A stretch of DNA of 64,000 bases from Candidatus Paceibacter sp. GTDB lineage: Bacteria; Patescibacteriota; Minisyncoccia; UBA9983. Each line of letters starts with the position of its first letter. The stretch's first letter is position 1. Made by a program: the position numbers and the translations under genes. Positions 6,259-58,392 of this stretch are shown piece by piece. The notes under the pieces are model-generated. The model was not told where the DNA came from. It made no database searches and saw only the letters and a program-made list of their open reading frames with translations. Location: assembly GCA_013360865.1 (NCBI GenBank), contig JABWAS010000003.1, positions 681 through 64,680 on the forward strand, written 5' to 3'.

Positions 6259-6804
6259 TTATCCTATTTTTCTAAAAACGGACATCAAGATTTGATCCAA
6301 ATATCTGCCGTTTTTGAATATTTGCCTTTTTCTGCAGCCCTCCACCTTAAAGCCACATCCTTTATAACACTTTATTGCTCTTTTGTTATTGGAAAGAACA
6401 GTTAGACACACTTTGCGCAAATTAAGGGTATTAAAGGCAAAGCCAATAAGCAGTGACACAGCTTCCGTTCCGAAACCCTTGCCCCAATAGCTTTTTTCGC
6501 CGATAGATATGCCAAGAGTGACCGTTCTGTCTTTCCAATTTATTCCATGAAGACCGGCTGTTCCAATCAGAGTTCTCTCAATAGTTTCAACGCCCAACAC
6601 AATATCGCTAGACTTCCGCTTGGAAAGATTTTCAATCCAGCATATTTCTTCGTCTTCATGCATTGGTAAATAAGCCGAAAGATATTGCGTTACTTCCGGA
6701 TCATTTATCCACCGCATTAATTTTCCGACATCGCTTTTTAACAACGGACGAAGATTAACCTTTTCGCCAGGCAAAAATACAACTTTTTCTTCACTGCCAT
6801 CCAT
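6259..6804 (-). CDS. GNAT family N-acetyltransferase (RimJ/RimL-like)
   Basis: GNAT motifs …LGISIGEKSYWGKGFGTEAV… and …KCYKGCGFKVEG; AT-rich relative to neighbours. Confidence 0.65.
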   Translation of the reverse strand: MDGSEEKVVFLPGEKVNLRPLLKSDVGKLMRWINDPEVTQYLSAYLPMHEDEEICWIENLSKRKSSDIVLGVETIERTLIGTAGLHGINWKDRTVTLGISIGEKSYWGKGFGTEAVSLLIGFAFNTLNLRKVCLTVLSNNKRAIKCYKGCGFKVEGCRKRQIFKNGRYLDQILMSVFRKIG

Positions 6805-10591: not shown

Positions 10592-10942
10592 TTACTTTAA
10601 AATATTTTCTATCTTTGTTTCCAGCTTCAATCCTTTGTCTATCTCAAAAGACACCTCCGGCAGGTTTTGCAGTCTTGTTTCCGCTTTCAGAAATTTTCTC
10701 AAATCTTTTCTTTTTCTGTTTAAAAGGTCAACAATTTCTTTTTCTTTCTTTTCCGGAAAAACGCTTATCAAAACCCGCACGTAGTCGGTGCTCGCGGACA
10801 AAATAACCTTGGTCGCCGTCACCAGCGCCTCCGGGTCCACTTCAAATCTTATAAAAGAGCCGGCCACCTCGCGCAGCAAAGACGCCAACCTCTTTTTTTT
10901 CTTTATTTTTGCGCTATCCATCACTGCTGTATTTTGCAACAT
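10592..10942 (-). CDS. rbfA: Ribosome-binding factor A
   Basis: The RbfA pattern …KRLASLLREVAGSFIRFEV…YVRVLISVFPE… is present, the size is ~110 aa, and the gene sits in an infB-region-like neighbourhood. Confidence 0.7.
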   Translation of the reverse strand: MLQNTAVMDSAKIKKKKRLASLLREVAGSFIRFEVDPEALVTATKVILSASTDYVRVLISVFPEKKEKEIVDLLNRKRKDLRKFLKAETRLQNLPEVSFEIDKGLKLETKIENILK

Positions 10943-10950
10943 TAAAAGCC

Positions 10951-12501
10951 TTATTTCAAGGCCAAGCTCTCCCCCCTCATTTCCGCCGGTTTTTCAATCC
11001 CCATTATCTCCAGAATTGTCGGGGCGATATCAGCCAGTTTACCCGTCCGCGAGGAGGGTTTACCCGCCGACACGGAGGGCTTGTCCGAGTTTTTAAGCTT
11101 TATATTTTTGGCGGCAATTATAAGCGGCACACGGCTTTCCGTGTGGGCCGTGTGCGGACTGCCGGTTTTATCGTCAAACATTTTTTCGGCGTTGCCGTGG
11201 TCGGCCGTCACAATCAAAACATATCCGAATTTTTTCACCGCTTCAAAAATCCGGCCGATGCTTCCATCCACTGCTTCAACCGCCCTGACAGTTGCTTCAA
11301 CCTTTCCGGAATGGCCCACCATGTCCAGATTGGCAAAGTTGGCCAGAATAAAATCATATTTGCCGCCGGCGGACTTTTCTACCACGGCGTCGGCGATTTC
11401 TTCGGCTTTCATCTCCGGCGCCAGGTCATGAGTGGCGACTTTGTTGGATGGGATAAGCAGACGGTCTTCGCCCGCGTACGGATATTCCCTGCCTCCGTTG
11501 AAAAAGTAAGTGGCATGGGCGAATTTTTCCGTCTCCGCAACATGAAACTGCTTCAGGTTGTTTTTGGATAAAACTTCCGCCAGATTTTCTTCAATCACTC
11601 CGCCGGAAAAAAGCGCCGTTTTAGCCATAGACGAATCATATTCGGTCATTGTCAGATAAGTGAAATCTTCGGCGTGGCATTCCTCGTTGAATTTTTGGGC
11701 CAGCTGTCTGGCCCGGTCGGAGCGGAAGTTGAAGAATATCATCACGTCATGGTCCATGATTTCGCAAGTTCTGCCAGCTGGCGTCGGGAAAACACACGGC
11801 TTGATAAATTCATCGGTTACGCCGGACTCATAATTCTTTCTTATGGCTTCCGCCGGGGAATCGTACTTTTCTCCTTCCCCTTTAGTTATGGCGTTAAAAG
11901 CGCATTGCGTCCTGTCCCAATTATTATCTCTGTCCATAGCGTAATAACGGCCGGAGAGCGAGGCCACGCAGGCCATGCCTGATTCTTTGCAAACTGACTC
12001 CAACTCGGCCACATATTTTTCGGCACTTTGCGGCGGAGTGTCCCGCCCGTCGGTAAAAGCGTGGATAAAAACTCTCGGCACTCCCGACTTTTTGGCCAAA
12101 TCAATCAAGGCGTAGAGATGTCTGATATGGGAATGCACCCCGCCCGGCGAAACAAGTCCCTTTATGTGAACAGTGGAATTAAATTTTTTCGCTTTCTCAA
12201 AAGCCGCGGCAAGAAGAGGATTTTTCTCCAGTATTTTTTCTTCAACCGCCTTGTTTATTTTTTCTAAGTCCTGATACACCACTCTGCCGGCTCCGATGTT
12301 CATGTGCCCCACTTCGCTGTTGCCCATCTGCCCTTCTGGCAAACCGACAGCCTTGCCCGACGCTTCCAGCTCGCAATGAGGAAAGTTGTTCCAAAGGTAA
12401 TTAAAGTTCGGCGTCTTGGCTTGGGCGATGGCGTTGTATTTTTTGTCATCCGACAATCCCCACCCGTCCAGAATCAAAAGAATTACTTTTTTGTGATTCA
12501 T
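10951..12501 (-). CDS. gpmI: 2,3-bisphosphoglycerate-independent phosphoglycerate mutase
   Basis: MNHKKVILLILDGWG, …NSEVGHMNIGAGR…, and the C-terminal metal-binding TADHGN. The start is placed at the internal Met that matches iPGM N-termini. Confidence 0.85.
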   Translation of the reverse strand: MNHKKVILLILDGWGLSDDKKYNAIAQAKTPNFNYLWNNFPHCELEASGKAVGLPEGQMGNSEVGHMNIGAGRVVYQDLEKINKAVEEKILEKNPLLAAAFEKAKKFNSTVHIKGLVSPGGVHSHIRHLYALIDLAKKSGVPRVFIHAFTDGRDTPPQSAEKYVAELESVCKESGMACVASLSGRYYAMDRDNNWDRTQCAFNAITKGEGEKYDSPAEAIRKNYESGVTDEFIKPCVFPTPAGRTCEIMDHDVMIFFNFRSDRARQLAQKFNEECHAEDFTYLTMTEYDSSMAKTALFSGGVIEENLAEVLSKNNLKQFHVAETEKFAHATYFFNGGREYPYAGEDRLLIPSNKVATHDLAPEMKAEEIADAVVEKSAGGKYDFILANFANLDMVGHSGKVEATVRAVEAVDGSIGRIFEAVKKFGYVLIVTADHGNAEKMFDDKTGSPHTAHTESRVPLIIAAKNIKLKNSDKPSVSAGKPSSRTGKLADIAPTILEIMGIEKPAEMRGESLALK

Positions 12502-14096: not shown

Positions 14097-15425
14097 ATGA
14101 GCATTTGGTGGAAGTTTTACCTGAAGAGAATTTTTCTGTTGGTTGCAAGTTTGGCTGTAATTGGTTTGATTACCCTGCTGGTTATGGGGGGTTTCTCAAA
14201 AATAGCGGATTACGCGTACCATCTCGTCGCCTGGATTTTGCAGCGGCTTACTGATCCAAATTGGAACTGGGACTGGAAACATTGGACAGTGTTTGGTTTA
14301 TCTTTGGGTATATTGTTGTTTGTTTATCTCCTTGCTTTTTTGCTGGGGCAAAGCAAAACAATAATTACAATGCCTAAGGAAGGAGAAATTGAGTTGGCGG
14401 TAAGAGGAGAAAGCTTCTTAAAAATCATACCCAATATAAAAGGGTATGGGACAAAAGAAGATGAAATAGAGGCGGACATAGGGGGCAAAATAATAAAAAT
14501 AAAAACACCCCAAATCTGTCCAACCGAAGAAGGAGGAAAACCGCCTAGAAAATTTCTCGGACTTGCGCTTGTAGGGCTGTTTATACCTTTTGATAAGATT
14601 CTTCGTTATGACTTTAGTTGGGATAAGGCCATCTCAAAAGCAACAGCCGATGAAGAAAAGAAAAAAGGCGCCAGCGTTGAGGAAACTTCTTTTGGCGACT
14701 TGTGGCTGTCCCACAGGACGGAAAAAGTGTCTTCTTTATATTTTAGGTACACTTACCCGATAATAGTAAGGAACATTGAACTTGCGGGCAGGTATCCTAT
14801 TGATATCTACTTTAACGTTACGGTTGAGGCGGTTTATCCCATCATCCCGGTGTTTTACCTTAAAGGTAGGTGGTTTACCGTGCTAAGTTCCAAGTTTGGA
14901 GGCGTAATAAGCGATCTTCTAAGGGGTAAGGAGCTGAAAACTTTTGAAGAAATGGAAAAAGAAGATTTCTTCAACGGAAAGGTTAAAGAAGAAAATAATA
15001 TTTTTCTCAAAGCAACGGGGATGAAAATATTCCATGCCGCTTACAGAGATTACCAACCGTCTGGAACTTTAGAAGAAAAAACAGCAGCTTCCGCGGAAAA
15101 AGTGGCCAAACTTAGAGCTGATGCTAGGAAACAAGAAGCAGAAGGAGAAGGAGCCGCGCTGGAACGGGAAGGCGTAGCAAAAGCAAAAAATCTTGAACGA
15201 CTACTTGAACAAGCCAGCAAACACCCTCTCGGTGGACAAATCCTGATAGAACAATTTCGAAAGGAAGGGTTGGAGGGTTTTAGCGGCAATTTCCTAAGTC
15301 TGGGTCAAGCTCAACCCGCCGCTCCCATGATCGGAGTAGACGCAGGCGGCACAGGCGGTAAAAACAAAAAAACAGGAAAAAAGAAGCAAGAACCAGAAGA
15401 ACCAAAAGAAGAAGAGGAAGAATAG
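14097..15425 (+). CDS. SPFH/band-7 (flotillin-like) membrane protein with a Glu/Lys-rich tail
   Basis: N-terminal TM helices. The C-terminal coiled coil …KLRADARKQEAEGEGAALEREGVAKAKNLERLLEQA… is typical of flotillin/YqiK. Confidence 0.45.
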   Translation: MSIWWKFYLKRIFLLVASLAVIGLITLLVMGGFSKIADYAYHLVAWILQRLTDPNWNWDWKHWTVFGLSLGILLFVYLLAFLLGQSKTIITMPKEGEIELAVRGESFLKIIPNIKGYGTKEDEIEADIGGKIIKIKTPQICPTEEGGKPPRKFLGLALVGLFIPFDKILRYDFSWDKAISKATADEEKKKGASVEETSFGDLWLSHRTEKVSSLYFRYTYPIIVRNIELAGRYPIDIYFNVTVEAVYPIIPVFYLKGRWFTVLSSKFGGVISDLLRGKELKTFEEMEKEDFFNGKVKEENNIFLKATGMKIFHAAYRDYQPSGTLEEKTAASAEKVAKLRADARKQEAEGEGAALEREGVAKAKNLERLLEQASKHPLGGQILIEQFRKEGLEGFSGNFLSLGQAQPAAPMIGVDAGGTGGKNKKTGKKKQEPEEPKEEEEE

Positions 15426-15441
15426 AAAGGAGGAATAACAA

Positions 15442-16287
15442 ATGGACAAAATGATATGGGGATTGGCAATAGTTTTTGGCGTAATCGCTTTTATTTCTTT
15501 TTTGCTGTGGCAAAAGTCAAGCGGCTACAAAATAAGCATGAAGGGGTATCTGCCCAAATACCCTGGGACATGGAAAATAATAGGGTTAATTTTCGCCGGT
15601 GGAGCGGCATATGGGATATATTTGATTGTTTGCAGTTATATCCCGCCCCAGAGCGAGCGGTTGTTTAAGCAGGTGGTTGAAAAACAAAAGGCGCAAGAAA
15701 TTGCGCCACTGCTTAAAGAGTTGCAGGATATCACAGAAGGAACAAGTACCGCTTCGGGCGTCGGAAAGGCGAAAGGGATTAAGGATGAAATTGAAGTCAT
15801 TGAGAAAAAGTACGACAAGATATTGGATCCGGAATCCGCAAAAGAAACTCCTCCTCCCCGTGTTTATGTGGAATGGGTTTTAGAGATTAAGGCGACCTCC
15901 GCCCTCATAGAAAGTTATGAGAGGCAAAAGCCATTAATTCAGAGGCCCGTGGCCTCAATAATATGGGACAAAAACAAAATGTCCCTAAAATACCTCGCGA
16001 AGAGCGACGGCAAGGAGCGAGAAATTATTCTGGAGAGGGATGTTCCGGAACAATTTTTTGCCGGGTATTATTGGAATAGCGATACCCGGAAAAATTCCGT
16101 CTTGTGGCTGAAAGAGCCCCAGGGCGGTGTCGCAAATAAATTTGAATCTTACGACCAGATAAAAAAAGAAAAGGTCGTAAGAGAAACGATTTTCACCGGT
16201 TGGATGTCAAAAAACAGCCGGGGCGATACGATGGATGCGGAAGTATCCATCATCAAGCAAACAACAACGGCAGCTAGCAAAAACTAG
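15442..16287 (+). CDS. Hypothetical membrane protein (2 N-terminal TM), probably co-transcribed with the SPFH gene
   Basis: It starts 17 nt after the SPFH stop and is followed by a terminator. Confidence 0.45.
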   Translation: MDKMIWGLAIVFGVIAFISFLLWQKSSGYKISMKGYLPKYPGTWKIIGLIFAGGAAYGIYLIVCSYIPPQSERLFKQVVEKQKAQEIAPLLKELQDITEGTSTASGVGKAKGIKDEIEVIEKKYDKILDPESAKETPPPRVYVEWVLEIKATSALIESYERQKPLIQRPVASIIWDKNKMSLKYLAKSDGKEREIILERDVPEQFFAGYYWNSDTRKNSVLWLKEPQGGVANKFESYDQIKKEKVVRETIFTGWMSKNSRGDTMDAEVSIIKQTTTAASKN

Positions 16288-16300
16288 CTGCCGCTTTTTT
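16269..16300 (+). terminator. Rho-independent terminator (GGCAGCTAG…CTAGCTGCC plus T6), shared by convergent genes
   Basis: A perfect 9-bp stem followed by TTTTTT. Confidence 0.7.
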
Positions 16301-16319
16301 ATGCCGATAATTCAGAAAT

Positions 16320-16790
16320 TTATTCTAAATCTATCCCCCCGCCCTTACTGCTCGCGTTTCCTCCCTGCAAAACGCTGTCATAAAGATACGGCACGTCCGG
16401 CGGGCTGTCGTCCAAGTCAAAAGTATTTACCAAAATATTAACTATCCCCCAGAAGCTTATCATTACGAACAGGCCAATGACGCCGAACGTCATCATTTTG
16501 CCCGCCTCTTTCCTTTTATCCTCGTCGCCGCCGGAAGTGATGTATTTTAAAATGCCGATAAGAAAATAAACGACGGCCAGGGCGACAATCAAAACAACGA
16601 CAATATCCAAAATGTCCAAAATTATGTAAAGCAAATCCCACAAACCTCCGCCGCCTCCTCTTCCGGTGTATCTTGTGCTTACATCAACGTCGTAATCTAT
16701 GAGGTTGTCCTGCGCCAAAGCAAAAACGGGCAGGAAGTAAACGACTACGGCTAATAATTTTTTAAGATAATTTTTTATTATTCTCCTCAT
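16320..16790 (-). CDS. Small secreted 2-TM protein, VirB2/TrbC-pilin-like, paralog 5 (156 aa)
   Basis: Signal peptide ending …VFALA-QD, then two hydrophobic helices separated by SGGDEDKRKEAG, with the conserved FGVIGLFVMISFWGIVNIL motif. Confidence 0.5.
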   Translation of the reverse strand: MRRIIKNYLKKLLAVVVYFLPVFALAQDNLIDYDVDVSTRYTGRGGGGGLWDLLYIILDILDIVVVLIVALAVVYFLIGILKYITSGGDEDKRKEAGKMMTFGVIGLFVMISFWGIVNILVNTFDLDDSPPDVPYLYDSVLQGGNASSKGGGIDLE

Positions 16791-16797
16791 AATACGG

Positions 16798-16844
16798 CAT
16801 CAAGGTTCCTACTTGATAGTTGCTATAAAGGAGGAACCTTGATG
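16798..16844. promoter_or_regulatory. Palindromic element CATCAAGGTTCCT…AGGAACCTTGATG, 10 nt upstream of the paralog-5 start
   Basis: 13-bp perfect inverted arms, related to the element at 17531-17577. Confidence 0.5.
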
Positions 16845-16866
16845 CAACCAGACATTCAGCCCAATC

Positions 16867-17130
16867 TTAATAAATTGATTCAATGTCCCACCAGAAATCA
16901 GACAAAATATTGATTATGCCGTAAGCGGAAATCATCACGAACATCCCGATCACTCCGTATATCATATGTCTCTTGCCCTTGCTTCTTACGTCCTCGTTTT
17001 CCGCGCCAAGAATATACTCTGTTATGCCGTAAATGAACATAACCGTAGCCACGGCAAACATAAAGCCGATTATCGGGTTTAGGATAAGGTGCTTTACGTT
17101 GTTTATCAGCTTTACGGTTTCAGCGCTCAT
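16867..17130 (-). CDS. Small 2-TM protein, VirB2/TrbC-pilin-like, paralog 4 (87 aa)
   Basis: Two hydrophobic helices separated by AENEDVRSKGKRH; conserved YGVIGMFVMISAYGIINIL. Confidence 0.45.
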   Translation of the reverse strand: MSAETVKLINNVKHLILNPIIGFMFAVATVMFIYGITEYILGAENEDVRSKGKRHMIYGVIGMFVMISAYGIINILSDFWWDIESIY

Positions 17131-17131
17131 T

Positions 17132-17476
17132 TTATATCTGTGGCAGAACGTCTATATCCGGCAAGTCGTTGTCCAGATTAAAAGTTCCTTCCAGAATATT
17201 GACCAATCCCCAGACACTGACCATCACGAACAAGCCGATGATGGCGTAGATGATGAGATTGTGGTAATTCTTCCTCTTTTCTTCGTCTTCTCCGGCTCTT
17301 ATGTAACCGATAATAGCTATCAACAAGATAATGACGGCGATAGCGATTATCAAAGGAACGATTTTGTTCAATATGTCGCCGGTAAGATCAATAAGATCGT
17401 CTAAGCTGGAAACGGCTCCGGCCGCCAAAGGAAGACCGAGCAGTCCGAAAGTTAAAACCTTTTTAACTAAATTCAT
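17132..17476 (-). CDS. Small secreted 2-TM protein, VirB2/TrbC-pilin-like, paralog 3 (114 aa)
   Basis: Signal peptide …LAAGA, loop AGEDEEKRKNY, conserved YAIIGLFVMVSVWGLVNIL. Confidence 0.5.
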   Translation of the reverse strand: MNLVKKVLTFGLLGLPLAAGAVSSLDDLIDLTGDILNKIVPLIIAIAVIILLIAIIGYIRAGEDEEKRKNYHNLIIYAIIGLFVMVSVWGLVNILEGTFNLDNDLPDIDVLPQI

Positions 17477-17494
17477 AAATTAATTTTTAAATAT

Positions 17495-17510
17495 TTTTGG
17501 TCGACCAAAA
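17495..17510. promoter_or_regulatory. 16-bp perfect palindrome TTTTGGTCGACCAAAA in the paralog-3 promoter region
   Basis: It lies between the big palindrome (17531-17577) and the start codon (17476). Confidence 0.4.
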
Positions 17511-17530
17511 TTTTCTAATAATAATTCTGA

Positions 17531-17577
17531 CATCAAGGTTTCTCCTTGATAGCTGCTATCAAGGAGAAACCTTGATG
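17531..17577. promoter_or_regulatory. 47-bp perfect palindrome CATCAAGGTTTCTCCTTGATAGC t GCTATCAAGGAGAAACCTTGATG upstream of paralog 3
   Basis: 23-bp arms with a nested inner palindrome CCTTGATAGCTGCTATCAAGG. Confidence 0.55.
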
Positions 17578-17617
17578 TTCTATAATAATAAACCATTATT
17601 TCAAAAACAGCTACAGT

Positions 17618-17995
17618 TCAAAGCGCCTTGACTGTGGATTGCAAAACTTCCGTTATGACCCAGGCTCCCACCAGTATACCTGTTCCTATTATCGCCCAAA
17701 GCAGACCTTTTTTGGCGTCGGTTAAGGCTTTCTCGTCGCCTCTGGCCATTACCATTCTTAATCCGGAATAAATTATAAACACTACCGCTATGGGTATGCC
17801 TATTTCTATGGCCAAAGTGGAGATTGTTTTAACTAAGTCGCTGAAAGAACTGGAAGTCAGCGGGTTGCAAAGAACGCTTGTTTCCGAACCGGAGTAGAAC
17901 TCGCAATCCGAGGAATTTTGGGCGCGGGCGGACAGAAAAAAATTAAAATAATTGAATGTCGCCGCTACGATTATGAATATTTTCTTTTTTAGCAT
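17618..17995 (-). CDS. Small secreted 2-TM protein, VirB2/TrbC-pilin-like, paralog 2 (125 aa)
   Basis: Signal peptide …LSARA-QN, a Cys pair in the mature N-terminus, loop ARGDEKALTDAKKG, second TM LLWAIIGTGILVGAWVITEVL. Confidence 0.45.
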   Translation of the reverse strand: MLKKKIFIIVAATFNYFNFFLSARAQNSSDCEFYSGSETSVLCNPLTSSSFSDLVKTISTLAIEIGIPIAVVFIIYSGLRMVMARGDEKALTDAKKGLLWAIIGTGILVGAWVITEVLQSTVKAL

Positions 17996-18025
17996 ATAAA
18001 GTTTGTTTTTAAATGTAATTTAGCT

Positions 18026-18451
18026 TTAATCGTCGCCTTCGCAACCGGGGAAGGCGTACCACGATTCGGAAAAATCTTTGTCCGCCAGAGCCCCCAAAAC
18101 AGTGTTTACCATAACCCACGCCGCGAAGGTTATAAAAAGACCGACCACGGCGGCCCAAACAGCGTTGGTGCCGGATGACTTTTTCTTCTCGTTGCCCCCG
18201 GAAGTTATAAGCATTATGCCACCATAAATAAGAATTATCGCGCCCAGCGGAGCGGCGATGGTGAACGCGGCGAAATTAACCACGTTGGAAACAAGTTCAA
18301 ATATGTCGCAGATCTTGCAATCAAGGCCGTCGCAGGGAATAATGTCCGATTTTTCCTGGGCGAAAGCGGGAACGCTTAAAAAGAGATTGGCCGCCATAAA
18401 AACCGTTCCGATTATCGCCGCTTTTAAAATTTTTGTTTTCCTTTTTATCAT
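18026..18451 (-). CDS. Small secreted 2-TM protein, VirB2/TrbC-pilin-like, paralog 1 (141 aa)
   Basis: Signal peptide …PAFA-QE, CDGLDCKIC, loop TSGGNEKKKSSG, second TM AVWAAVVGLFITFAAWVMVNTVL. Confidence 0.45.
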   Translation of the reverse strand: MIKRKTKILKAAIIGTVFMAANLFLSVPAFAQEKSDIIPCDGLDCKICDIFELVSNVVNFAAFTIAAPLGAIILIYGGIMLITSGGNEKKKSSGTNAVWAAVVGLFITFAAWVMVNTVLGALADKDFSESWYAFPGCEGDD

Positions 18452-18463
18452 TTTTTAGATTAG

Positions 18464-19783
18464 TTAAGGTTTCTTCAGCAGCTGGTCAATTTTTCTCTTT
18501 GCCGTCAGAACAGCTTCGGAAACGGTGGCCCGGCCCGAGGCCGCCGACTCCGCCATATCTTTGAAAACCAGATAGGTCGCCTGGGCGTCCGGGTCAATCC
18601 AGGCGCGGGTCATCACTGCCGCCTTGTTTATCAGGGAAAAGTAGGCGTCGGAGCTCCTTTCGGCCAAAACGTCTCTTCTGGGGGAAGCCAGTCCGGCGGC
18701 CTGGGAAAACCTCTTGGAATTCGCTCCGGAGGTCATAGTGGCGATGGCCGAGAAAGCAGCCTGCTTTTTCGGGGAATTTTTCAGAATCGCCAGTCCGTAA
18801 ATTCTGCCGAAATCCAGCTTACTCCTTGCGTCTTTAAGCTGCGGAACCTCGGCAATGTCAAAATCAAGATGGGGATTTTTGGCTCGAAGTCCCGGCGCTT
18901 CGCCGGCAAAGCCGAAATACATTGCCAATGATCCGCGGGCGAACATCGCGTCCGATTTGGGCAGAGCCTTGTTCCAGGAATAACTGTTTTTGGATGGATT
19001 GGAAAATTCATTGAAGAACCGTACCGAGGCTTCCGCCGGGCTCACTTGTTTTCCACCGCCATCCAACGCCGCTCTCAAGTTACCTCTTGAGTCAGCTTTT
19101 ACTATCGGCTCGCCCGCCTGCAGCATAAGCAGAGACATTATGTCCTTCGCATTGCGAACGTTAGTAAATTCTCCCAGCGCCGCGCCGGACACCTCCACGT
19201 TGCCGGCCTCGTTTTTCTCGGTAAAGATTCCGGAATATTGGGCGAACTCGTCCCAGTTTTTGGGCGGCTGGCTGATGCCGGCGGAAGAAAACATTTCTTT
19301 GTTCCAGTAAAGAATCATCGGGTCAACGAGAAACGGGACGGCCGTTATGCCGCCGCCGCTTTTATCCATATAAATTTCCGCGCCGTCAATGAAGTTGTCC
19401 AAAAAACTCCTTTCCGGATAATTGACGAACGGCACCGTGTAAATTCTTTCTTTGTTTTCCAGAACCATATCCTGGCTTACAATCCAGAAGTCCGGCCCGC
19501 GGCCGGAAGCCAGCGCTTCTATCGTTTCGCTTTCGTAGGTCGCCGGATTTTTTTCCTCGTATTTTATGTTGAAAAAATCTTTGTTTTCTTTGTTTATCGC
19601 CGAGACGACCGGCCAGATTTTTTCCTGGGGCAAAGTTCCCCACATCACCAGATTGGCGGCCGGGCCCCGCTTGTTTTTATTTTTGTAGCCGGGCAGGAAC
19701 CCGCCGAAGATCATCACTGCCAGAACCGCGCCTAAAATGAGGACGCCCGTGACCGCTATGGGGAAAAAGCTAATTTTTTTCAT
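18464..19783 (-). CDS. ABC transporter substrate-binding protein (family 1, sugar-type), membrane anchored, with no adjacent permease genes
   Basis: N-terminal TM anchor, then …ANLVMWGTLPQEK… with a MalE-like fold pattern. Confidence 0.65.
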   Translation of the reverse strand: MKKISFFPIAVTGVLILGAVLAVMIFGGFLPGYKNKNKRGPAANLVMWGTLPQEKIWPVVSAINKENKDFFNIKYEEKNPATYESETIEALASGRGPDFWIVSQDMVLENKERIYTVPFVNYPERSFLDNFIDGAEIYMDKSGGGITAVPFLVDPMILYWNKEMFSSAGISQPPKNWDEFAQYSGIFTEKNEAGNVEVSGAALGEFTNVRNAKDIMSLLMLQAGEPIVKADSRGNLRAALDGGGKQVSPAEASVRFFNEFSNPSKNSYSWNKALPKSDAMFARGSLAMYFGFAGEAPGLRAKNPHLDFDIAEVPQLKDARSKLDFGRIYGLAILKNSPKKQAAFSAIATMTSGANSKRFSQAAGLASPRRDVLAERSSDAYFSLINKAAVMTRAWIDPDAQATYLVFKDMAESAASGRATVSEAVLTAKRKIDQLLKKP

Positions 19784-19787
19784 CGCT

Positions 19788-20318
19788 TTATTGTTTTCTG
19801 AATATTAGCCCGTAATGATTGCTCCCGGCCGGAAATTCTCTTTCTTCCGTAAAACCTTCCTGGGTGAAAATTCTTTCCGCCTCTTTTTGCGCGACAACCG
19901 CCGAGGGCGCCGGGCCAAGCCCACCCGTTCCGGACTCGCTCCAGTCTATGACGGCGGCTCTGCCTCCGCTTTTCAAAACGCGGCTCGCTTCCCTGGCCAG
20001 GCCGATTTTATCCCGAAGCTGGAACAGAATGTTGGAAATGACGAGGAAATCAACGGCGCCGCTGGCCAGCCTTGATCCTTCCGGTCCTTCCAAATCGGCC
20101 CAGACTATTTCCACGTTTGTCAGGTTGTTTTTGCCCGCCTCCGTTTTAATTTTCTCCAAAAGATTTTTCTGGATGTCCACCGCGTAAACCGTTCCCGTGT
20201 TGCCGATTCTTCTGGCCGTTTCCAAAACGTAATGGCCGGAGCCGCTGCCGAAATCGGCCACCGTCATCCCCCGCCTCAACTCAAAATTTTTTATTATTTC
20301 CGAAGGATTGAGGAACAT
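19788..20318 (-). CDS. Class I SAM-dependent methyltransferase
   Basis: Motif I VADFGSGSGHY; motif II/III pattern. Confidence 0.7.
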   Translation of the reverse strand: MFLNPSEIIKNFELRRGMTVADFGSGSGHYVLETARRIGNTGTVYAVDIQKNLLEKIKTEAGKNNLTNVEIVWADLEGPEGSRLASGAVDFLVISNILFQLRDKIGLAREASRVLKSGGRAAVIDWSESGTGGLGPAPSAVVAQKEAERIFTQEGFTEEREFPAGSNHYGLIFRKQ

Positions 20319-24616: not shown

Positions 24617-25270
<654 letters not shown>

Positions 25271-25749
25271 CGGCGCGAAATTTTTTTCTAAAACGGGAAT
25301 ACTGATGGCCGTCGTCAGTTTCTTCGGTCTGCTGGACTCTTCTTACCTTGCCTCCAAACATTACTCCGGCACATTGCCACCCTGCGGCTTGTTCCAGGGC
25401 TGCGACGTGGTGACAACGAGCAAATTCGCCGAGATCGGCGGAGTTTCCGTGGCTTTACTCGGGGCGATATATTATCTTGTCGTCCTTCTGGTTTCCATAA
25501 TTTACCTGCAGACAAAAAATAAAAAAATTCTTTTCTTCCTCTCCTTATTCGTCCCCGTCGGGTTCGCGGCTTCGGCGTGGTTCTTTTTCGTGCAGGCCTT
25601 CGTTCTAAAATATTTCTGCGCTTACTGCCTGTTCTCCGCTTTCACCTCCACCACTCTTTTCGTCATAGGATTGGCGACATTTTTCCGACTCAAAAAAGAA
25701 ATTCACACCGGAGTATTGCAAGAAAATCCGGCAGGATTATAATGATTTT

Positions 25750-27489
25750 TTGTTTATTATGAACTCCGGCGCCGGTTTTGGGTTTCTTTTTGCCAATTTA
25801 AAAAGAAACTGGAAGTCAGGGATCACCGTTTCCCTCGTATCCATACCGCTTTCGGTTTCTTTGGCCGTGGCCGCCAATGCCACGCCGCTGATGGGCATCA
25901 TTACCGGCGTCTGGGCCGGATTGATTGCTTCGTTTTTCGGCGGCAGCAACTTCAACATTGTCGGGCCGACCGGCGCCCTGTCCGGGATTTTGGCGATGTT
26001 CGCCATCACCCACGGCGTCGGCGCTCTGCCGGCCTTGGCCGTGGCCAGCGGCGTTATAATCCTCGTCTCCTTCGCCCTGCATTTGGAAAAATACATCATT
26101 CTTATCCCCTCCAGCGTCATCCATGGGTTTACTTTGGGCGTAGCCTTTATCATCGGGCTCAACCAGCTCAACTACGCGCTCGGCCTGCAGGGACTTCCGG
26201 CGCACGAAAAGTTCATCAACAACGTGGCCGAATCATTAAGGCACATCGGCCGGTTTGACGTCTGGGCGTTGGCGCTTTTCGCCATAACTTTGTGCATCCT
26301 GTTCGTGTTTTTGAAACTTGTTCCCAAAATCCCCGGACCGATAATCGTGGCGCCGCTGGGAATATTTTTGGGTTACCTTTCCGAAAACGGAATGATAGAA
26401 GCGCAGTTCCAAACCCTGCACACGAAGTTCGGGGAGATCGGCTCGCAGATAGCGCAACTGCCGTCTTTCTCGTCGTTTTTCGGCAATTTTACGGATATGG
26501 GTTTGATAAAGGCCTCGTTGGCTATCGCCGTCGTGGCCATTCTGGAGACGCTCATCTCGGCCAAAATCGCCGACGGCATGACCAAAACAAAATCCAAGCC
26601 CCGCAAGGAAATGTTCGGTCTCGGTCTGGCCAACATCGCTTCCGGACTTTTCGGCGGCATACCGGCCACCGCCGCACTGGCCCGGACTTCGCTTAACGTG
26701 AAAAGCGGCGCGACTCACAAAATGTCGGCCACCATCAGCAGCATTATGATAGCCGCGATATCGCTGATGTTTCTCTCTTACTTCAAATATTTGCCCATGG
26801 CCGTGGTGGCTTCTATCCTGGTTTACGTGGCTTTCCGCATGGTGGAAGCGGAGCACTTCAAACACATTTACACCCACGACAAATCCGCCTTCGGCCTCAC
26901 TCTGGCCGTGGCCGGCATCACCGTCGCCCAGGACCCGATAATCGGCATTTTGGTCGGCTCGGTCATCGCCCTGCTTATTTTCGTCAACCAACTTTCCAAA
27001 GGACAGAGCGAAATAATCATCAACAAAGACAAAAAAATGATCGCCCGCATCCAGACGCTCAAATTCAACGAAATAGAAAAACATTCCGGAGACGTGGTGG
27101 TGTACAGAATGGCCGGCCAGATGAATTACATCAATTCCCAATCGCATTTGGACAATTTGAGCAAGATAAACGGAGCGCACACGGTCGTCCTTAATTTCAG
27201 AAACTTATTCCACATAGACTTGGACGGGCTGGACGCTCTGGAGGAAATAGTTTCTTCCAACGAGGCCAAAGGGAAAAAGGTGATGGTGACCAGCGCGGGG
27301 CCGTTTATTCTGCCGGCGCTGGAAAGAGAGCCCTGGTACCAAGGCTTGAAAAGCAAGGGTTTAATTTTCAACAGCACCACGGACGCTTTGGAATCGCTTG
27401 GTTTTAAACTGGACAAAAACGCGGGCAAAGACGGCAAAGGCGGGGCGCTATTGCAGGATTGCGTTCAGTGTGGTACAGTAGATAACTAG
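25750..27489 (+). CDS. SulP family anion transporter with C-terminal STAS domain
   Basis: …SLVSIPLSVSLAVAANATPLMGIITGVWAGLIASFFGGSNFNIVGPTGAL…, with a STAS-like C-terminus. Confidence 0.85.
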   Translation: MFIMNSGAGFGFLFANLKRNWKSGITVSLVSIPLSVSLAVAANATPLMGIITGVWAGLIASFFGGSNFNIVGPTGALSGILAMFAITHGVGALPALAVASGVIILVSFALHLEKYIILIPSSVIHGFTLGVAFIIGLNQLNYALGLQGLPAHEKFINNVAESLRHIGRFDVWALALFAITLCILFVFLKLVPKIPGPIIVAPLGIFLGYLSENGMIEAQFQTLHTKFGEIGSQIAQLPSFSSFFGNFTDMGLIKASLAIAVVAILETLISAKIADGMTKTKSKPRKEMFGLGLANIASGLFGGIPATAALARTSLNVKSGATHKMSATISSIMIAAISLMFLSYFKYLPMAVVASILVYVAFRMVEAEHFKHIYTHDKSAFGLTLAVAGITVAQDPIIGILVGSVIALLIFVNQLSKGQSEIIINKDKKMIARIQTLKFNEIEKHSGDVVVYRMAGQMNYINSQSHLDNLSKINGAHTVVLNFRNLFHIDLDGLDALEEIVSSNEAKGKKVMVTSAGPFILPALEREPWYQGLKSKGLIFNSTTDALESLGFKLDKNAGKDGKGGALLQDCVQCGTVDN

Positions 27490-27894: not shown

Positions 27895-28440
27895 ATGGCG
27901 CTGATACAAAATATTGACCTCTGGGCGGCCGGTTACGCCGAATCAATACGGAGCGTTTTTTTGACTTCGTTTTTCAAGACTGTCACTTACTTAGGCGAGT
28001 GGTCTATTGTTCTGGCGGTAGCCATAATCGTCGCTTTAGTTTTGATTACCAAAGGGAAAAAGGTTTATGCCCTCACTCTGGCCTTGATAACATTTTTAAG
28101 TATCGGCTCCGTCTTTATTTTAAAATACGCTATTCAACGCCCACGGCCAATTGACGGCATTATTGACGAAACTTCATTTTCTTTCCCCAGTCTTCATGCC
28201 GTTCTTTCCGTAGCTTTTTATGGTCTGATAATTTATTTTTTGTGGGAAAGATTTAAAAGCCCGCGGTTCCGCTTTTTTAAAATATTATTCGGCCTTGTTT
28301 TGGTGTTGTTTATCGGCTTCAGCCGCGTTTATCTTGGCGTGCATTATTTGAGCGACGTGCTGGGCGGTTATCTTTTGGGGCTGTTCTGGCTGACGGCCGG
28401 AATTTACGCTTCTTTTAAAAGTGGCAAGGCGAGACCTTGA
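27895..28440 (+). CDS. PAP2-family phosphatase (undecaprenyl-diphosphatase-like)
   Basis: KYAIQRPRP, SFPSLHAV, SRVYLGVHYLSDV; the start is moved to the first ATG after the terminator. Confidence 0.7.
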   Translation: MALIQNIDLWAAGYAESIRSVFLTSFFKTVTYLGEWSIVLAVAIIVALVLITKGKKVYALTLALITFLSIGSVFILKYAIQRPRPIDGIIDETSFSFPSLHAVLSVAFYGLIIYFLWERFKSPRFRFFKILFGLVLVLFIGFSRVYLGVHYLSDVLGGYLLGLFWLTAGIYASFKSGKARP

Positions 28441-28471
28441 CATAAGTCATGTCAAGGTCTCGCCTTGCCAC
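28421..28471. repeat. 51-bp palindrome GTGGCAAGGCGAGACCTTGACAT aagtc ATGTCAAGGTCTCGCCTTGCCAC overlapping the PAP2 stop
   Basis: 23-bp perfect arms; it shares the GCGAGAC/GTCTCGC core with 44161-44204 and 51961-52007. Confidence 0.8.
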
Positions 28472-28492
28472 TTGCCAAAACCATAATCAACC

Positions 28493-30668: not shown

Positions 30669-30718
30669 AAAATCAAGGTTAAACCTTGAGATGCTTTTTA
30701 AGGTTTAACCTTGATTTT
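30669..30718 (+). terminator. Inverted repeat AAAATCAAGGTTAAACCT…AGGTTTAACCTTGATTTT plus T-run downstream of recG
   Basis: 18-bp arms, an A-run before and a T6 run after, so it may act in both directions. Confidence 0.55.
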
Positions 30719-33258: not shown

Positions 33259-33714
33259 ATGTCCGCGCTTTTGGAAAACAAGAAGGCTTATTTTGACTAT
33301 GAAATTATGGAAAAATTCCAGGCCGGTTTGGAGCTGCTTGGCTGGGAAGTTAAATCTTTAAGGAATAAACAAGGTTCGCTGGCCGGCTCCCGGGTGATAA
33401 TCCGGGGCGGCGAAGCGTTTTTAGTGGGAGCAAGCGTTTCTCCTTATCAGCCTAAAAACATCGCCAGCGGTTCCGCCAAAGCGGGAGAAGAAAACAGGAC
33501 AATAAAACTTCTGCTGACAAAAAAAGAGCTGAACTATCTGGCGGGCAAGGCGGAAGAAAAAGGGCTGACGCTCATCCCTCTTAAAATTTTTACTCTGGGC
33601 AAAAAATTGAAGCTGGAGCTCGCCCTCGTCCGCGGCAAGAAAAAATTTGAAAAACGGGAAAAAATCAAAAAAAGAGAAACGGAAAGAAATGTTAGGAGAT
33701 TGATGAAAGAGTAA
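33259..33714 (+). CDS. smpB: SsrA-binding protein
   Basis: …NKKAYFDYEI…, the KLLLTKKEL…KGLTLIPLK… pattern, and a basic C-terminal tail. Confidence 0.85.
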   Translation: MSALLENKKAYFDYEIMEKFQAGLELLGWEVKSLRNKQGSLAGSRVIIRGGEAFLVGASVSPYQPKNIASGSAKAGEENRTIKLLLTKKELNYLAGKAEEKGLTLIPLKIFTLGKKLKLELALVRGKKKFEKREKIKKRETERNVRRLMKE

Positions 33715-34536: not shown

Positions 34537-34886
34537 GGGGATGATCGGCCTGGACAAAGAGTACGTTTAAATCACGCAAGCCGAGTGTTCTAAAAACTCG
34601 TAAAACTTTCAGAAATCTAATTAAGCGTCAAAAACTTATTTAGCCAACCGGCGTTAGCTTACGCTTAACCCGGCGTTCCCCCGGCCCACTTCCGATAAGC
34701 CGGACGGAATGTCATTTATCGGGATAGGAAAATTTCCGCCTCAAAAATTTTCCGAAAAATTAGAGGCTCTGGATTCGGAGATTTTGATTGTTTAATACCC
34801 CGTTTCCGAAACGAACAAACAACCTAAGCTTGTAGAACTGATTTAAAACAGCTTTTTGCACGGCGGTTCGATTCCGCCCATCTCCA
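34537..34886 (+). ncRNA. ssrA: tmRNA (transfer-messenger RNA)
   Basis: The 5' end GGGGATGATCGGCCTGGAC pairs with the 3' CATCTCC-A. The T-arm is GGCGG-TTCGATT-CCGCC. It is ~350 nt and adjacent to smpB. A candidate tag frame ends …QPALAYA followed by TAA. Confidence 0.7.
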
Positions 34887-34996
34887 TAAATAAAATGCTC
34901 CAGCTTGCCTAGGGCCATTTTTATTTATGAGCACGATGAAACGGAATCGAACGGACTGACTAAATGTCAGTCCGCGGAATTTTCCATAAGAAAATT

Positions 34997-51558: not shown

Positions 51559-53244
51559 TTATTTAAAATTATTTAACTTTTTAGTAAGAGTATGAAAATC
51601 ATTTAAGCAGCTTTCCAGTTCCTTTTCCGCGCTTTCCGCTTTTTCCGTTTCCAGTTTTCTTATCCGTCGCGTTATCTCTTCCAGTTCGTTTTTTAATTTT
51701 TCTTTGGATAACTCTTTTTCCATTTTCTCCATCTCCTCCTTCAGCGTCTCGGAACCGTCAAAATAAATTTCCGCTTCCGTTATTATTTTATTTATATCAT
51801 TATCTTGCAATTTGTCAACGTAGTCTTTTATCCGTTCCAGAACTTGTCCGGCCGCGCTTTTTATTTCCGGATTTCGCGATTCTTTTTGCCACAGGGCCAG
51901 CCCGGCCAGCCGGTTGGAAAGAAATTCCAGGCGGGTTTTGGGCGCGAAGCTTTTTTGGCGCACTGTCAAGGTCTCGCCTTGACTGTCAAGGCGAGACCTT
52001 GACAGTGGTTCTAGTTTTACTTTCTTCAACTCCTGCCAGACCGGTTCTTCGGATATGCCGAATTTGTCGGCTATTTTTTTGACCACCTGCGCTTTCTCAA
52101 TCTCGCTGGGCAACCCGGCTATCAAAGGCAGGATTTTACCTTCCACCGATTTGCGGTCGCCCGCCGCCTCCAGCAGAAAGTCAAAAATATTCCGGGCGCT
52201 TTCCACCGCCGCCAGCCAGCTTTCCGGGTCTTCCAAAACGGCGTCCGCCGGATCTTTGCCGGAAGGGATGACGGCCGCCCTCACCTCCAAACCTTCCGCC
52301 AAGGCCATGGATATGCTTCTTTGCGCCGCGCTGATTCCGGCCCGGTCGCTGTCAAAAGCCATTATTATTTTGTCGGCCAGTCTTTTTATAAGGTTGAGGT
52401 GAAACGAAGTTAAAGCCGTTCCGGAAACAGCCACCGTGTTTGACACCCCGGCCTGACGCGACATTATCGCGTCCATCTGCCCTTCCACCAAAACGCAGGA
52501 GTTCGTTTTGCGGATTTCCCCTTTGGCTTTGTCAAAAGCGTAAAGAAGGCGGGACTTGTCGTACAAAACCGTCTGCGGCGTGTTGACGTATTTGCCTTCA
52601 TTGCCGGCCTGTTCGCCAAAAATTCTGCCGCTGAAGCCGACAACCTGGCCGGAAGAATTGGCCAGCGGAAACATTATCCGGCTCCGGAAGCGGTCGTAAT
52701 AACCCTTGGACGACTTTATGACCATTCCCGCTTTTTCCATTTCCGCGTCAGCATAGCCTTTTTTCTTCAAAAAATCATAGAGATTCCTCCAGCCTTCCGG
52801 AGCGAAGCCTATGCCGAAAGCTTTGGCCATTTCCCCTTTCACGCCTCGTTTTTTAAGGTAATCTATGACCGCGGAATTTTTCCTCAATTCGTTTTCGTAA
52901 AATATCGCGGCGCTTTGCGTCAGATGGAGCAGTTTCGTCCGTTCGTTTTTCTGCCCAATGTTTATTTTCTCCACCCGCACTCCGGCCCGGTCGGCCAAAA
53001 TTTTCAGCGCTTCCACGAAATCAATCCCTTCCATCTCCATCACGAAACTGAACATATCTCCGCCTTTGGAACAGCCGAAGCAATGCCAGCTTTCCCTGGC
53101 GGGAGAAACGAAAAACGAGGGCGTTTTTTCCGCGTGGAACGGGCAGCAGGCTTTGTAAGACGAGCCCGCTTTAGTGAGTTTGACGTAGCTCTGAACCACG
53201 TCAACTATGCCGAGGCGGGATTTAATTTGCTCAACGGTAGACAT
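51559..53244 (-). CDS. dnaG: DNA primase
   Basis: Zinc ribbon [15 protein letters not shown]…[11 protein letters not shown] and a TOPRIM domain; it contains an in-frame palindromic insert at 51961-52007. Confidence 0.9.
51961..52007. repeat. 47-bp palindrome CACTGTCAAGGTCTCGCCTTGAC t GTCAAGGCGAGACCTTGACAGTG in-frame inside dnaG (encodes [16 protein letters not shown])
   Basis: 23-bp perfect arms; the same core as the palindrome at 28421-28471. Confidence 0.8.
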
Positions 53245-56967: not shown

Positions 56968-58392
56968 TTATTTGACTTCGCCGTCTTTCTTCAGATAAAT
57001 GTCCAGCGCCAGACCTCTTAACTCGCTTAGCAAAACGTTAAACGACGCCGGCAGGTTGGGACTCTTGAACTTCTCTCCTTTGATAATGGAATTGTAAGCC
57101 GCCGCCCTGCCCGCGATGTCGTCTGATTTGATGGTCAATATTTCCTGCAGAGTGTGAGACGCGCCGTATCCTTCCAGCGCCCACACCTCCATTTCTCCGA
57201 ATCTCTGGCCTCCGCCCTGGGCCTTGCCGCCGAGTGGCTGCTGGGTGATAAGCGAGTAAGGGCCGATGGACCTCATGTGAATCTTGTCTTCCACCATATG
57301 ATCCAGCTTCATCATGTAAATCTGACCAACGGTCACCTTCTGGTCAAAAGATTCTCCGGTCCTGCCGTCGTAAAGTTTGAACTTGCCGTCTTCCGGATAG
57401 CCGGCCTTCTTGAGTTCTTCTTTTATTTCCTCCTCGGTCGCGCCGTTGAATCCCGGGGTTATGGCATGATAGCCGAGTTTTTCCGCCGCCATGCCAAGAT
57501 GAGTTTCCAAAATCTGGCCGATGTTCATACGGGAAGCAACGCCCAGCGGGTTGAGAATAATATCCACCGGCGTGCCGTCTTCCATGTAAGGCATGTCTTC
57601 CACCGGCAATATTCTGGAGATGACTCCTTTGTTGCCGTGCCGGCCGGCCAGCTTGTCTCCCACGGAAATTTTGCGCAGGCTGGCGATTTCCACGGAAACC
57701 TGTTTGATGATTCCCGGTTCCAGTTTGTCGCCCATATCGCGCGAGAAAACTTTGATGCCGATGACCCGGCCTTTCTTGCCGTGGTCAAGCCGCAGCGAGG
57801 TGTCTTTAACGTCTCTCGCCCTCTCGCCGAAAATTGAGCGCAAAAGCCTCTCTTCCGGCGTGAGTTCCACTTCTCCTTTGGGAGAAATTTTTCCGACCAA
57901 AATGTCGTCGGCCCGGACTTCCGCGCCGATGCGCACGATGCCGTCCTCGTCCAGATCTTTGAGCTTTTCTTCGCCGACGTTGGGTATGTCGTAAGTGGTC
58001 ATTTCCGGCCCGAGCTTGGTGTCTCTGACGTTGATGGAAAATTCTTCCACGTGAATTGAGGAAAATTTGTCCTCCCGGACCATTCTTTCGGAAAGAATGA
58101 TGGCGTCTTCAAAGTTGGAACCCTTCCAGGACAGGAAGGCCACCAGCGCGTTCTGCCCCATGGCCATCCGGCCGCGGTCGCTGGAGTAGTTGTCGGCCAA
58201 AACGTCGCCCTTTTTCACCTCGTCGCCCACGTTGACCGACGGGCGGTGATGAATCGCCGTCAGCGCGTTGGAGCGCAGGAAAGTCGCCAGAGCGTATTCT
58301 CTTTTTTTCTTCGGCCCTTCTTTTATTATTATTTTTGAAGCGTCAACGTAATCAACCGCGGCAGGCTCTGTCTTCCATGCCCGTGCCGACAA
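56968..58392 (-). CDS. rpoB: RNA polymerase subunit beta, C-terminal portion (out of frame with the N-terminal portion)
   Basis: …[12 protein letters not shown]…, [15 protein letters not shown], …MEVWALEAYGA…; the ORF track begins it at a TTG. Confidence 0.85.

Follow-up and report, generated by a model that had tools for sequence, protein, structure and literature searches.

A fixed-order array of VirB2-like pilin genes behind a solute-binding protein gene in Candidatus Paceibacter

The pilin array and the genes that compose it

The window analysed here is a stretch of 64,000 nucleotides (nt) from Candidatus Paceibacter sp. (assembly GCA_013360865.1, contig JABWAS010000003.1, positions 681 to 64,680 of the forward strand), and its subject is a tandem array of five small minus-strand genes at 16320-18451 that encode putative pilins of a type IV secretion system (T4SS). 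An earlier, sequence-only reading of this DNA had singled out five consecutive minus-strand genes of 141, 125, 114, 87 and 156 amino acids (aa), and open reading frames (ORFs) of these lengths lie exactly where it had placed them; we refer to their products as p141, p125, p114, p87 and p156. Upstream of the array, and on the same strand, are the gene for a membrane-anchored, MalE-like solute-binding protein (SBP) of the oligosaccharide type (439 aa; 18464-19783) and, 4 nt from it, that for a class I S-adenosylmethionine-dependent methyltransferase (176 aa; 19788-20318; Pfam Methyltransf_31/11/25). The first pilin paralog, p141 (18026-18451), combines a signal peptide, a cysteine-rich N-terminal tail (C40/C45/C48), a helical hairpin and a C-terminal tail with a further cysteine (C138), and p125 (17618-17995) has a signal peptide, an N-tail cysteine pair (C31/C43) and the hairpin. 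The third paralog, p114 (17132-17476), lies directly after a long internal gap; p87 (16867-17130) is short, lacks a signal peptide and starts 1 nt past p114, and p156 (16320-16790) closes the array with a glycine-rich N-tail and a long C-tail.

The gaps separating these genes measure 12 nt between the SBP gene and p141, 30 nt between p141 and p125, 141 nt between p125 and p114, 1 nt between p114 and p87, and 76 nt between p87 and p156. Past p156, in the space that separates it from a convergent 281-aa gene, a terminator-like hairpin at 16266-16295 can be drawn on both strands (10-13 bp stem, seven G-C pairs), followed by an obvious run of T on the plus strand and, on the minus strand, by a less pronounced T-rich tail (GTTGTTTGCT), and it is probably the end of the operon. 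Hence, the SBP gene and the five pilin genes very probably form a single operon, as indicated by the short gaps, by the terminator past p156 and by the succession of SBP and pilin genes in 77 of the 80 orthologous loci described below. The methyltransferase gene is probably part of the same transcription unit as the SBP gene.

All five proteins score above the gathering cutoff (26.6 bits) of the Pfam T4SS_pilin model PF18895, with 32.0 bits for p141, 44.4 for p125, 48.2 for p114, 36.5 for p87 and 42.6 for p156, in line with the T4SS pilin assignment that the sequence-only reading had put forward. The TrbC/VirB2 model PF04956 (cutoff 27.9 bits) aligns over its full length with p141 (22.8 bits, E=1e-4, profile positions 4-97 of 98) and p125 (20.3 bits), in both cases below threshold, and has no match among p114, p87 and p156 in the Pfam search; the likeness of p141 and p125 to this family is, at the level of profiles, one of remote similarity. 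For all five pilins the best NCBIfam model is NF045849 (cutoff 40 bits), which describes the Mbov_0395 family of pilin-like conjugal transfer proteins from integrative and conjugative elements (ICEs) of Mycoplasma. Only p114 exceeds its cutoff (42.7 bits), the other four scoring between 19 and 30 bits, and the model is matched by 52 of 55 family members at E<=1e-3. This match suggests that monoderm elements of the FATA mating-pair formation class (MPF-FATA) do carry a VirB2-like component. Holins and bacteriocin immunity proteins had been named as the kind of family to which the genes might instead belong; no holin, immunity, Flp or type IV pilin family of Pfam matches any of the five at E<=1, and neither does any PHROGs family at E<=0.01. 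Any two of the paralogs share 20-46% identity, with p114, p87 and p156 forming a closer subgroup, and the BLASTP E-values among them (2e-5 to 3e-28) indicate real homology rather than chance similarity. Judged by these profiles, then, the five genes are members of the Patescibacteria VirB2-like T4SS_pilin family. This family is of great size: at E<=1e-3 an exhaustive profile search recovers 49,913 cluster representatives, and at E<=1e-10 still 9,424.

The locus is thus not the undescribed system that the sequence-only reading had taken it for. A Pfam model exists, public copies of the five pilins, also spread across many sequencing runs, are already annotated with PF18895, relatives are named 'pilin' by NCBI, and identical pilins occur in the public metagenome-assembled genome GCA_023150695.1 (contig JAKLKK010000001.1, where p114 is L6Q29_00500). 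Published work has moreover described divergent VirB2-like pilins arranged in tandem in Patescibacteria (McLean 2020, PMC7427843; Wang 2023, PMC10633639; Quiñonero-Coronel 2025, PMC12102498), which bears out the claim that multi-copy arrays are typical of candidate phyla radiation (CPR) bacteria. The array described here falls within the definition used in the last of these surveys, namely at least two PF18895/PF04956 genes in tandem or one non-pilin gene apart and with low mutual identity (PMC12102498).

The architecture of the proteins follows the VirB2 type. Hydropathy analysis reveals an N-terminal hydrophobic segment and two later hydrophobic helices in four pilins, and two helices only in p87. 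Signal-peptidase sites are predicted by a heuristic application of the -3/-1 rule in the same four (AFA|Q in p141, ARA|Q in p125, AGA|V in p114 and ALA|Q in p156), as expected from the claim that all but the shortest protein carry a signal peptide. A predicted Sec leader, two hydrophobic helices and a short charged loop therefore characterize four of the five, and the loop sequences quoted in the sequence-only reading are all present. The motif that it ascribed to the second helix is complete in p114, p87 and p156 and loose in p141 and p125, while the cysteine pair that it called frequent is confined to p141 (four cysteines) and p125 (two), the other three proteins having none. An AlphaFold2 model of p114 (pLDDT 82.7) places helices at residues 2-21, 25-60 and 65-98, corresponding to a leader helix followed by a helix-loop-helix hairpin. 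Fold searches with the hairpin are non-diagnostic, and its fold is not specific to pilins; it is compatible with VirB2 without being proof of it, and so the family assignment rests on the sequence profiles.

The SBP belongs with the CUT1-type, MalE-like proteins both by profile (SBP_bac_8, 1e-21 and 78.4 bits; SBP_bac_1, 5e-20 and 73.2 bits) and by its two-lobe sugar-SBP fold, and its sequence resembles those of sugar-binding SBPs in PDB. The AlphaFold2 model (pLDDT 89, pTM 0.85) consists of a transmembrane (TM) helix at residues 6-27, a disordered linker and the two-lobe domain, for which the top Foldseek matches are mannooligosaccharide, maltodextrin and sophorooligosaccharide binding proteins (5ci5, 4r9g, 2zyo; E 1e-21 to 1e-23). 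Many aromatic residues are invariant across 48 homologs. No matching ABC permease or ATPase was found near the SBP gene, either in the window or in homologous loci on long contigs.

Conservation of the locus across Paceibacteria

The comparison used the best 80 of at least 448 relatives identified when species-representative genomes were scanned with an alignment of SBP orthologs, and pilins were located by a local hidden Markov model. These 80 loci derive from many Paceibacteria lineages, with SBP identities of 35-52%. Pilin genes lie directly downstream of the SBP gene and on the same strand in 77 of the 80, the contigs of the other three ending within 600 nt, and the median gap between SBP and first pilin is 10 nt. 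The SBP is hence a conserved upstream partner of the array and not the chance neighbour suggested by the term 'orphan' in the sequence-only reading. Where 4 kb or more of sequence is available downstream (53 loci), arrays of five pilins predominate (24 loci), followed by arrays of six (17), seven (6) and four (5), with a single pilin at one locus. The methyltransferase gene directly precedes the SBP gene in 73 of the 80 loci and gyrA is present upstream in 71, whereas downstream neighbours are poorly conserved; homologs on long contigs display gyrA, the methyltransferase, the SBP and four or five pilins, followed by opposite-strand genes that include a Band_7/SPFH protein. Departures from this layout occur in a few species (among loci L009 5144-5611, L045 7583-8053 and L081 807-1852), some of which have an extra lone pilin between gyrA and the methyltransferase gene, and others two pilins on the opposite strand upstream of the SBP.

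The check on paralog number and diversity that had been proposed for related genomes thus yields arrays of mostly four to seven pilins, and it also reveals that these are ordered. Of 363 pilins from 68 arrays, 346 score higher against a pilin from another genome than against the paralogs of their own array, and a matrix of array positions, query against best match, is strongly diagonal. The window paralogs 1 to 5 find their best matches in paralogs 1 to 5 of locus L008, at 51-68% identity (p141 51%, p125 52%, p114 63%, p87 68%). Within orthogroups, identity is 0.37-0.66 in the hairpin, 0.09-0.32 in the mature N-tail and 0.10-0.33 in the C-tail, so that the contrast between a conserved hairpin and diverged exposed tails, seen at first among the paralogs, holds among orthologs too. 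The exception to positional orthology is p156, which is about 46-48% identical to p114 and has its best cross-genome matches at the p114 position of other arrays. The paralogs thus represent distinct orthogroups of ancient origin whose order is fixed across Paceibacteria, and not a fast-diversifying cassette; the p114 and p87 types are the two best-conserved orthogroups, and p156 is a lineage-specific duplicate of the p114 type.

Distinct positions in the array also correspond to distinct subunit types. In 57 of the 68 arrays the last pilin carries just two hydrophobic segments, as opposed to three in 79-96% of the non-terminal pilins, which means that the terminal subunit is usually devoid of a leader peptide. 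Pilins in first position usually have an N-tail cysteine pair or, as in p141, three N-tail cysteines and one in the C-tail, and the four cysteines of p141 are kept in its L008 ortholog; a set of this kind could permit the N-tail to be disulfide-linked to the C-tail. Overall, 295 of 391 pilin cysteines map to the tails and two to the loop between the helices. Such a distribution agrees with a placement of both termini on the outer side of the membrane, where disulfides could be formed by the pair of DsbA-like thioredoxin and VKOR proteins encoded at 24617-25742 on the plus strand, 6 kb from the array.

The spacing of the genes follows a recurrent pattern as well. Intergenic gaps within arrays are 3-13 nt long, with the exception of the one ahead of the penultimate pilin, which measures about 100 nt (60 nt or more in 51 of 67 arrays) and has its window counterpart in the 141-nt gap before p114. 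The latter contains a perfect palindrome with 24-bp arms (17530-17578, no strand) made of two CAAGG-N5-CCTTG units and predicted to form a very stable RNA hairpin, the gap as a whole folding at -46.6 kcal/mol. Since a stable hairpin appears in the internal gap of only 15 of 60 other arrays, the conserved feature is the gap and not the hairpin. A degenerate copy of the palindrome, with arms 91% complementary, occupies the 76-nt gap before p156 (16797-16845, no strand). The CAAGG-N5-CCTTG unit has seven exact occurrences in the window against 0.03 expected, some of them at unrelated places, and the palindrome family, which usually consists of two adjacent units with complementary centres, comprises further sites at 28419-28473, 30669-30718 and 51961-52007, one copy being inside the dnaG coding sequence. 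A role as REP-like (repetitive extragenic palindromic) element, operator or mRNA hairpin is possible. Rfam matches on the operon are limited to spurious miRNA-hairpin hits to the palindrome.

Comparison of strains within the species provides a complementary view of how the array evolves. The strains are about 100% identical in the genes for p125, p114 and p87, as well as in gyrA and the genes for the methyltransferase, the SBP and enolase (comparison of L001-L006). In contrast to these, p141 is 91% identical, with 27 synonymous and five non-synonymous codon differences, and p156 is 94-97% identical, with a few substitutions and one indel. Positive selection on p141 between strains was considered and rejected, the changes being mostly synonymous. 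The diversification of a filament subunit that the sequence-only reading had proposed is therefore not borne out if it is taken to mean ongoing variation, neither by the differences in p141 nor by the age and fixed order of the orthogroups.

A further class of relatives concerns proteins in which several pilin modules are joined. Four poly-pilins (P0241, P0250, P0252 and P0293) consist of two, three, six or up to 17 tandem PF18895 hairpins behind one N-terminal signal peptide, the largest reaching up to 1775 aa. The three that were inspected, with two, three and six modules, have no internal start or leader sequence, and for this reason poly-pilins look like true fusions and not like read-through products. 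Natural hairpin fusions are evidence of the Rosetta-stone type for a joint action of adjacent modules within a single assembly.

Neighbouring genes and the remainder of the window

Convergent to the array, on the plus strand, lie the genes for an SPFH-like membrane protein of 442 aa and a single-TM protein of 281 aa (14097-16287), neither of which has a Pfam match. The description of the former as an SPFH protein has no direct profile match behind it and is sustained by similarity (E=8e-11) to a Band_7-positive protein of locus L010. Homologs of the 442-aa gene are found at 20 of the 80 loci and of the 281-aa gene at one, and the two are probably not part of the pilin system. At L010, the gene directly after the array (10643-11578, minus strand) encodes an SLT lytic transglycosylase with a VirB1-like domain; a corresponding VirB1-like identity for the 281-aa protein was discarded, as the two proteins lack similarity (E=3). 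In the strain comparison, the 281-aa gene and its divergent copies (L001, L002) share 77-89% identity, the 442-aa gene is either 92-98% identical (L001, L003) or not detected, and SulP is 96% identical. The resulting mosaic of strains (14097-18451 and 25750-27489) looks like local recombination imports into surface-protein genes.

The window as a whole is core chromosome. It encodes ABC-3, GH57, starch synthase, IF-2, TyrRS, RbfA, iPGM, enolase and GyrA, along with DsbA/VKOR, SulP, RecG, FtsH, SmpB, BipA, TGT, RpoD, DnaG and RpoB/C, the CPR-typical DUF5671 and DUF5667, and seven tRNAs. A tmRNA gene missed by ARAGORN was located in a gene-free gap at 34537-34889 on the plus strand (Rfam RF00023, 129.8 bits), about 800 nt from smpB (33259-33714). 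A GNAT acetyltransferase gene (6259-6804, minus strand) lies between those for TyrRS and IF-2 and is missing from that place in the sibling strains L173 and L174. The rpoB gene (56968-60103) is split into the overlapping ORFs 58352-60103 and 56968-58392; in strain L012 it is a single gene of 1057 aa, to which the window sequence is 100% identical apart from being 38 nt shorter, and the split is probably an assembly artefact.

The Pfam scan of the window covered about 48 ORFs, including every non-overlapping ORF of at least 138 aa, with nine shorter ones (73-133 aa) left out. In agreement with the sequence-only reading, which had reported VirB4, VirB6 and VirD4 as missing, none of these proteins was found among the ORFs scanned, nor was VirB11, over the 16 kb on one side of the array and the 46 kb on the other. 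The look-up of contigs past both window ends yielded only short contigs or polysaccharide-synthesis genes, and the Walker-A ORFs of at least 500 aa at the 80 loci are all housekeeping genes (ABC, SMC, FtsK or FtsH). When metagenomes were scanned from the partial GyrB that closes L010, the surroundings of gyrB in close relatives likewise contained neither VirB4 nor dnaA nor a pilin.

Possible roles of the array

Published work on Patescibacteria provides the setting in which these results must be read. A survey of 3,035 genomes with PF18895 and PF04956 found VirB4 in 2,417 assemblies and VirB2-like pilins in 1,948 of the VirB4-positive ones, near virB4 in 1,135, and defined 441 arrays of 2-11 genes in 383 assemblies, with a mean identity of 25% and a maximum of 54% (Quiñonero-Coronel 2025, PMC12102498). 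In Paceibacteria, virB4 is located near dnaA/dnaN (PMC12102498), and this placement, together with the absence of virB4 near the loci analysed here, indicates that the array lies away from the T4SS genes in this group. The homologous pilin array of S. epibionticum lies inside a T4SS cluster and is essential (Wang 2023, PMC10633639), in Paceibacterales enrichments T4SS pilins count among those genes of unknown function with the highest expression (PMC10936435), and the role of the Patescibacteria T4SS has been called 'completely unknown' (PMC11665869).

The published arrays (S. epibionticum ML1 SEML1_0006-0019, the 'Sec secreted array' of N. lyticus TM7x and those of PMC12102498) are the closest relatives of the one described here, being likewise tandem and chromosomal sets of 4-7 divergent paralogs, about 25% identical, in a CPR host, with the same PF18895 family and the same signal peptide and hairpin. 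The window array differs from them in residing outside the T4SS cluster, within a conserved block of gyrA, methyltransferase, SBP and pilin genes, and in coming from Paceibacteria, whereas arrays were reported to be most abundant in Microgenomatia and Saccharimonadia (PMC12102498). The diderm pilins of the TrbC/VirB2/TraA type (PF04956; T-pilus, RP4, F, pKM101) share the long leader, the two hydrophobic helices, the short charged loop and the small size, but they are single subunits and not five different ones, and the Paceibacter genes have no adjacent virB genes and a monoderm host, present no evidence of cyclisation or acetylation, and are known as genes with no pilus observed. The Mycoplasma ICE protein (Mbov_0395/MMCAP2_0565) belongs to monoderm conjugation of the MPF-FATA type, the class that gave rise to the Patescibacteria VirB4 clade, yet it is encoded by a single gene in a mobile element with relaxase and coupling protein, as opposed to several chromosomal paralogs with N- and C-tails and no mobile-element genes. 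By analogy, distinct, anciently diverged and ordered subunits in one fibre are also found in GspG-K and in PilA with PilV/W/X/FimU, although fold and machinery are unrelated, with a class III signal peptide, prepilin peptidase and N-methylation, and no N_methyl or type IV pilin profile matches the proteins studied here.

Our analysis makes it rather likely that several distinct, Sec-exported hairpin subunits co-assemble into a single surface filament or conduit that depends on a T4SS. Once exported by Sec and freed of its leader, each subunit would remain inserted in the membrane, its two termini facing outward and its charged loop inward, the tails would be disulfide-bonded by the DsbA/VKOR pair, and an MPF-FATA-like T4SS, encoded near dnaA in most Patescibacteria, would extract the different subunits and co-assemble them into one heteromeric structure serving contact with the host cell, with an organization that might resemble the major and minor subunits of other pili. 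More speculatively, the distal pair of p114-type and p87-type subunits, the best conserved and set behind the gap of about 100 nt, may represent a separately transcribed major component, and the SBP might supply glycan recognition, unless it is merely syntenic. Several points weigh against such a structure. To our knowledge, a T4SS pilus has never been seen in any Patescibacterium. The TrbC profile PF04956 scores under its cutoff, and a profile search of PDB sequences retrieved the pKM101 TraM pilin only at E=0.41. No VirB4, VirD4 or VirB6 was found in the window, in the 10 kb past its right end or within 10 kb on either side of the 80 loci, and a T4SS in the Paceibacter genome is presumed by analogy with the prevalence of VirB4 in Patescibacteria (2,417 of 3,035 genomes; PMC12102498). 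Finally, gyrA and the methyltransferase gene are as syntenic as the SBP gene, and synteny alone is hence no proof of a functional coupling between SBP and pilins.

Some of these points lend themselves to a different explanation, in which the two-TM proteins and their co-transcribed SBP would form a platform, channel or sensor in the membrane, independent of any T4SS and without a pilus. The close adjacency of SBP and pilins, the lack of T4SS genes around the 80 loci and of an ABC permease or ATPase beside the SBP, and a hairpin fold that is not specific for pilins are all consistent with it, and fusions of up to 17 hairpins would suit a membrane bundle just as well. We nonetheless regard it as improbable: the pilins are homologous to pilin-like families of conjugation, the arrays of Saccharibacteria are inside an essential T4SS cluster for which no SBP has been reported (PMC10633639), the adjacency may be historical given the equal synteny of gyrA and the methyltransferase gene, and no known transporter is so constructed. 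A bolder combination, to which we assign a similarly low probability, is that the pilins of Paceibacteria have become uncoupled from the T4SS cluster as a fixed module of 4-7 non-interchangeable subunits with a glycan-binding SBP, the latter standing in for VirB5 as an adhesin or receptor-recognition element of a kind otherwise missing from these monoderm systems, or else the hairpins acting as a T4SS-independent conduit for host glycans captured by the SBP.

It is also conceivable that the array is a variation cassette of interchangeable, alternative major pilins, a role in antigenic or host-range variation that has been proposed for the VirB2 paralogs of Bartonella and Anaplasma and suggested for Patescibacteria (PMC12102498). 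The low identity of the tails relative to the hairpin, the differences in p141 and p156 between otherwise identical strains and the status of p156 as a recent duplicate all agree with such a role. However, the tandem virB2 copies of Bartonella and Anaplasma phagocytophilum, for which surface diversification was put forward, are recent, similar to each other and located in or beside the virB operons of diderm pathogens, whereas those in the window are ancient and non-interchangeable. Positional orthology, maintained down to 35-52% SBP identity, is what disfavours this explanation, and the structurally distinct subunit types, the purifying selection indicated by the codon differences in p141 and an operon spacing that implies co-expression also run counter to it; in our judgement it is an unlikely one. 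The signal peptides of four proteins and the small size and tandem arrangement of the genes might suggest, in turn, soluble Sec-secreted effectors leaving through the T4SS, by analogy with ptx/ptl (PMC7427843), or an unrelated family of small TM proteins such as holins or bacteriocin immunity proteins. Both are essentially excluded, since the mature proteins keep two long hydrophobic helices and must be membrane-integral, the holin, immunity, Flp, type IV pilin and PHROGs searches were negative, and the locus is core chromosome without phage or bacteriocin genes. A set of old, distinct and ordered subunits, with a leaderless terminal member and a cysteine-rich first one, preceded by an SBP and never beside virB4, thus favours a heteromeric structure over antigenic variation.

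The interpretation that the sequence-only reading gave of this locus is therefore partly supported and its observation confirmed. What our analysis adds is modestly new: a conserved SBP-pilin operon, its separation from virB4 and the fixed order of its orthogroups. The papers that could be searched contain no link of an SBP to pilin arrays and no fixed-order orthogroups. The locus adds no new kind of system, but the comparison of loci gives a sharper form to one of the questions of Patescibacteria biology, that of the role of the essential T4SS and of its pilin arrays. The match to the Mycoplasma ICE proteins bears on a question left open in PMC12102498, that of a possible co-option of the pilins from diderm systems, and on whether they came together with a T4SS of the monoderm type. 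Beyond this, the SBP and the pair of p114-type and p87-type subunits provide concrete targets for experiment in the now-cultivable Paceibacterales.

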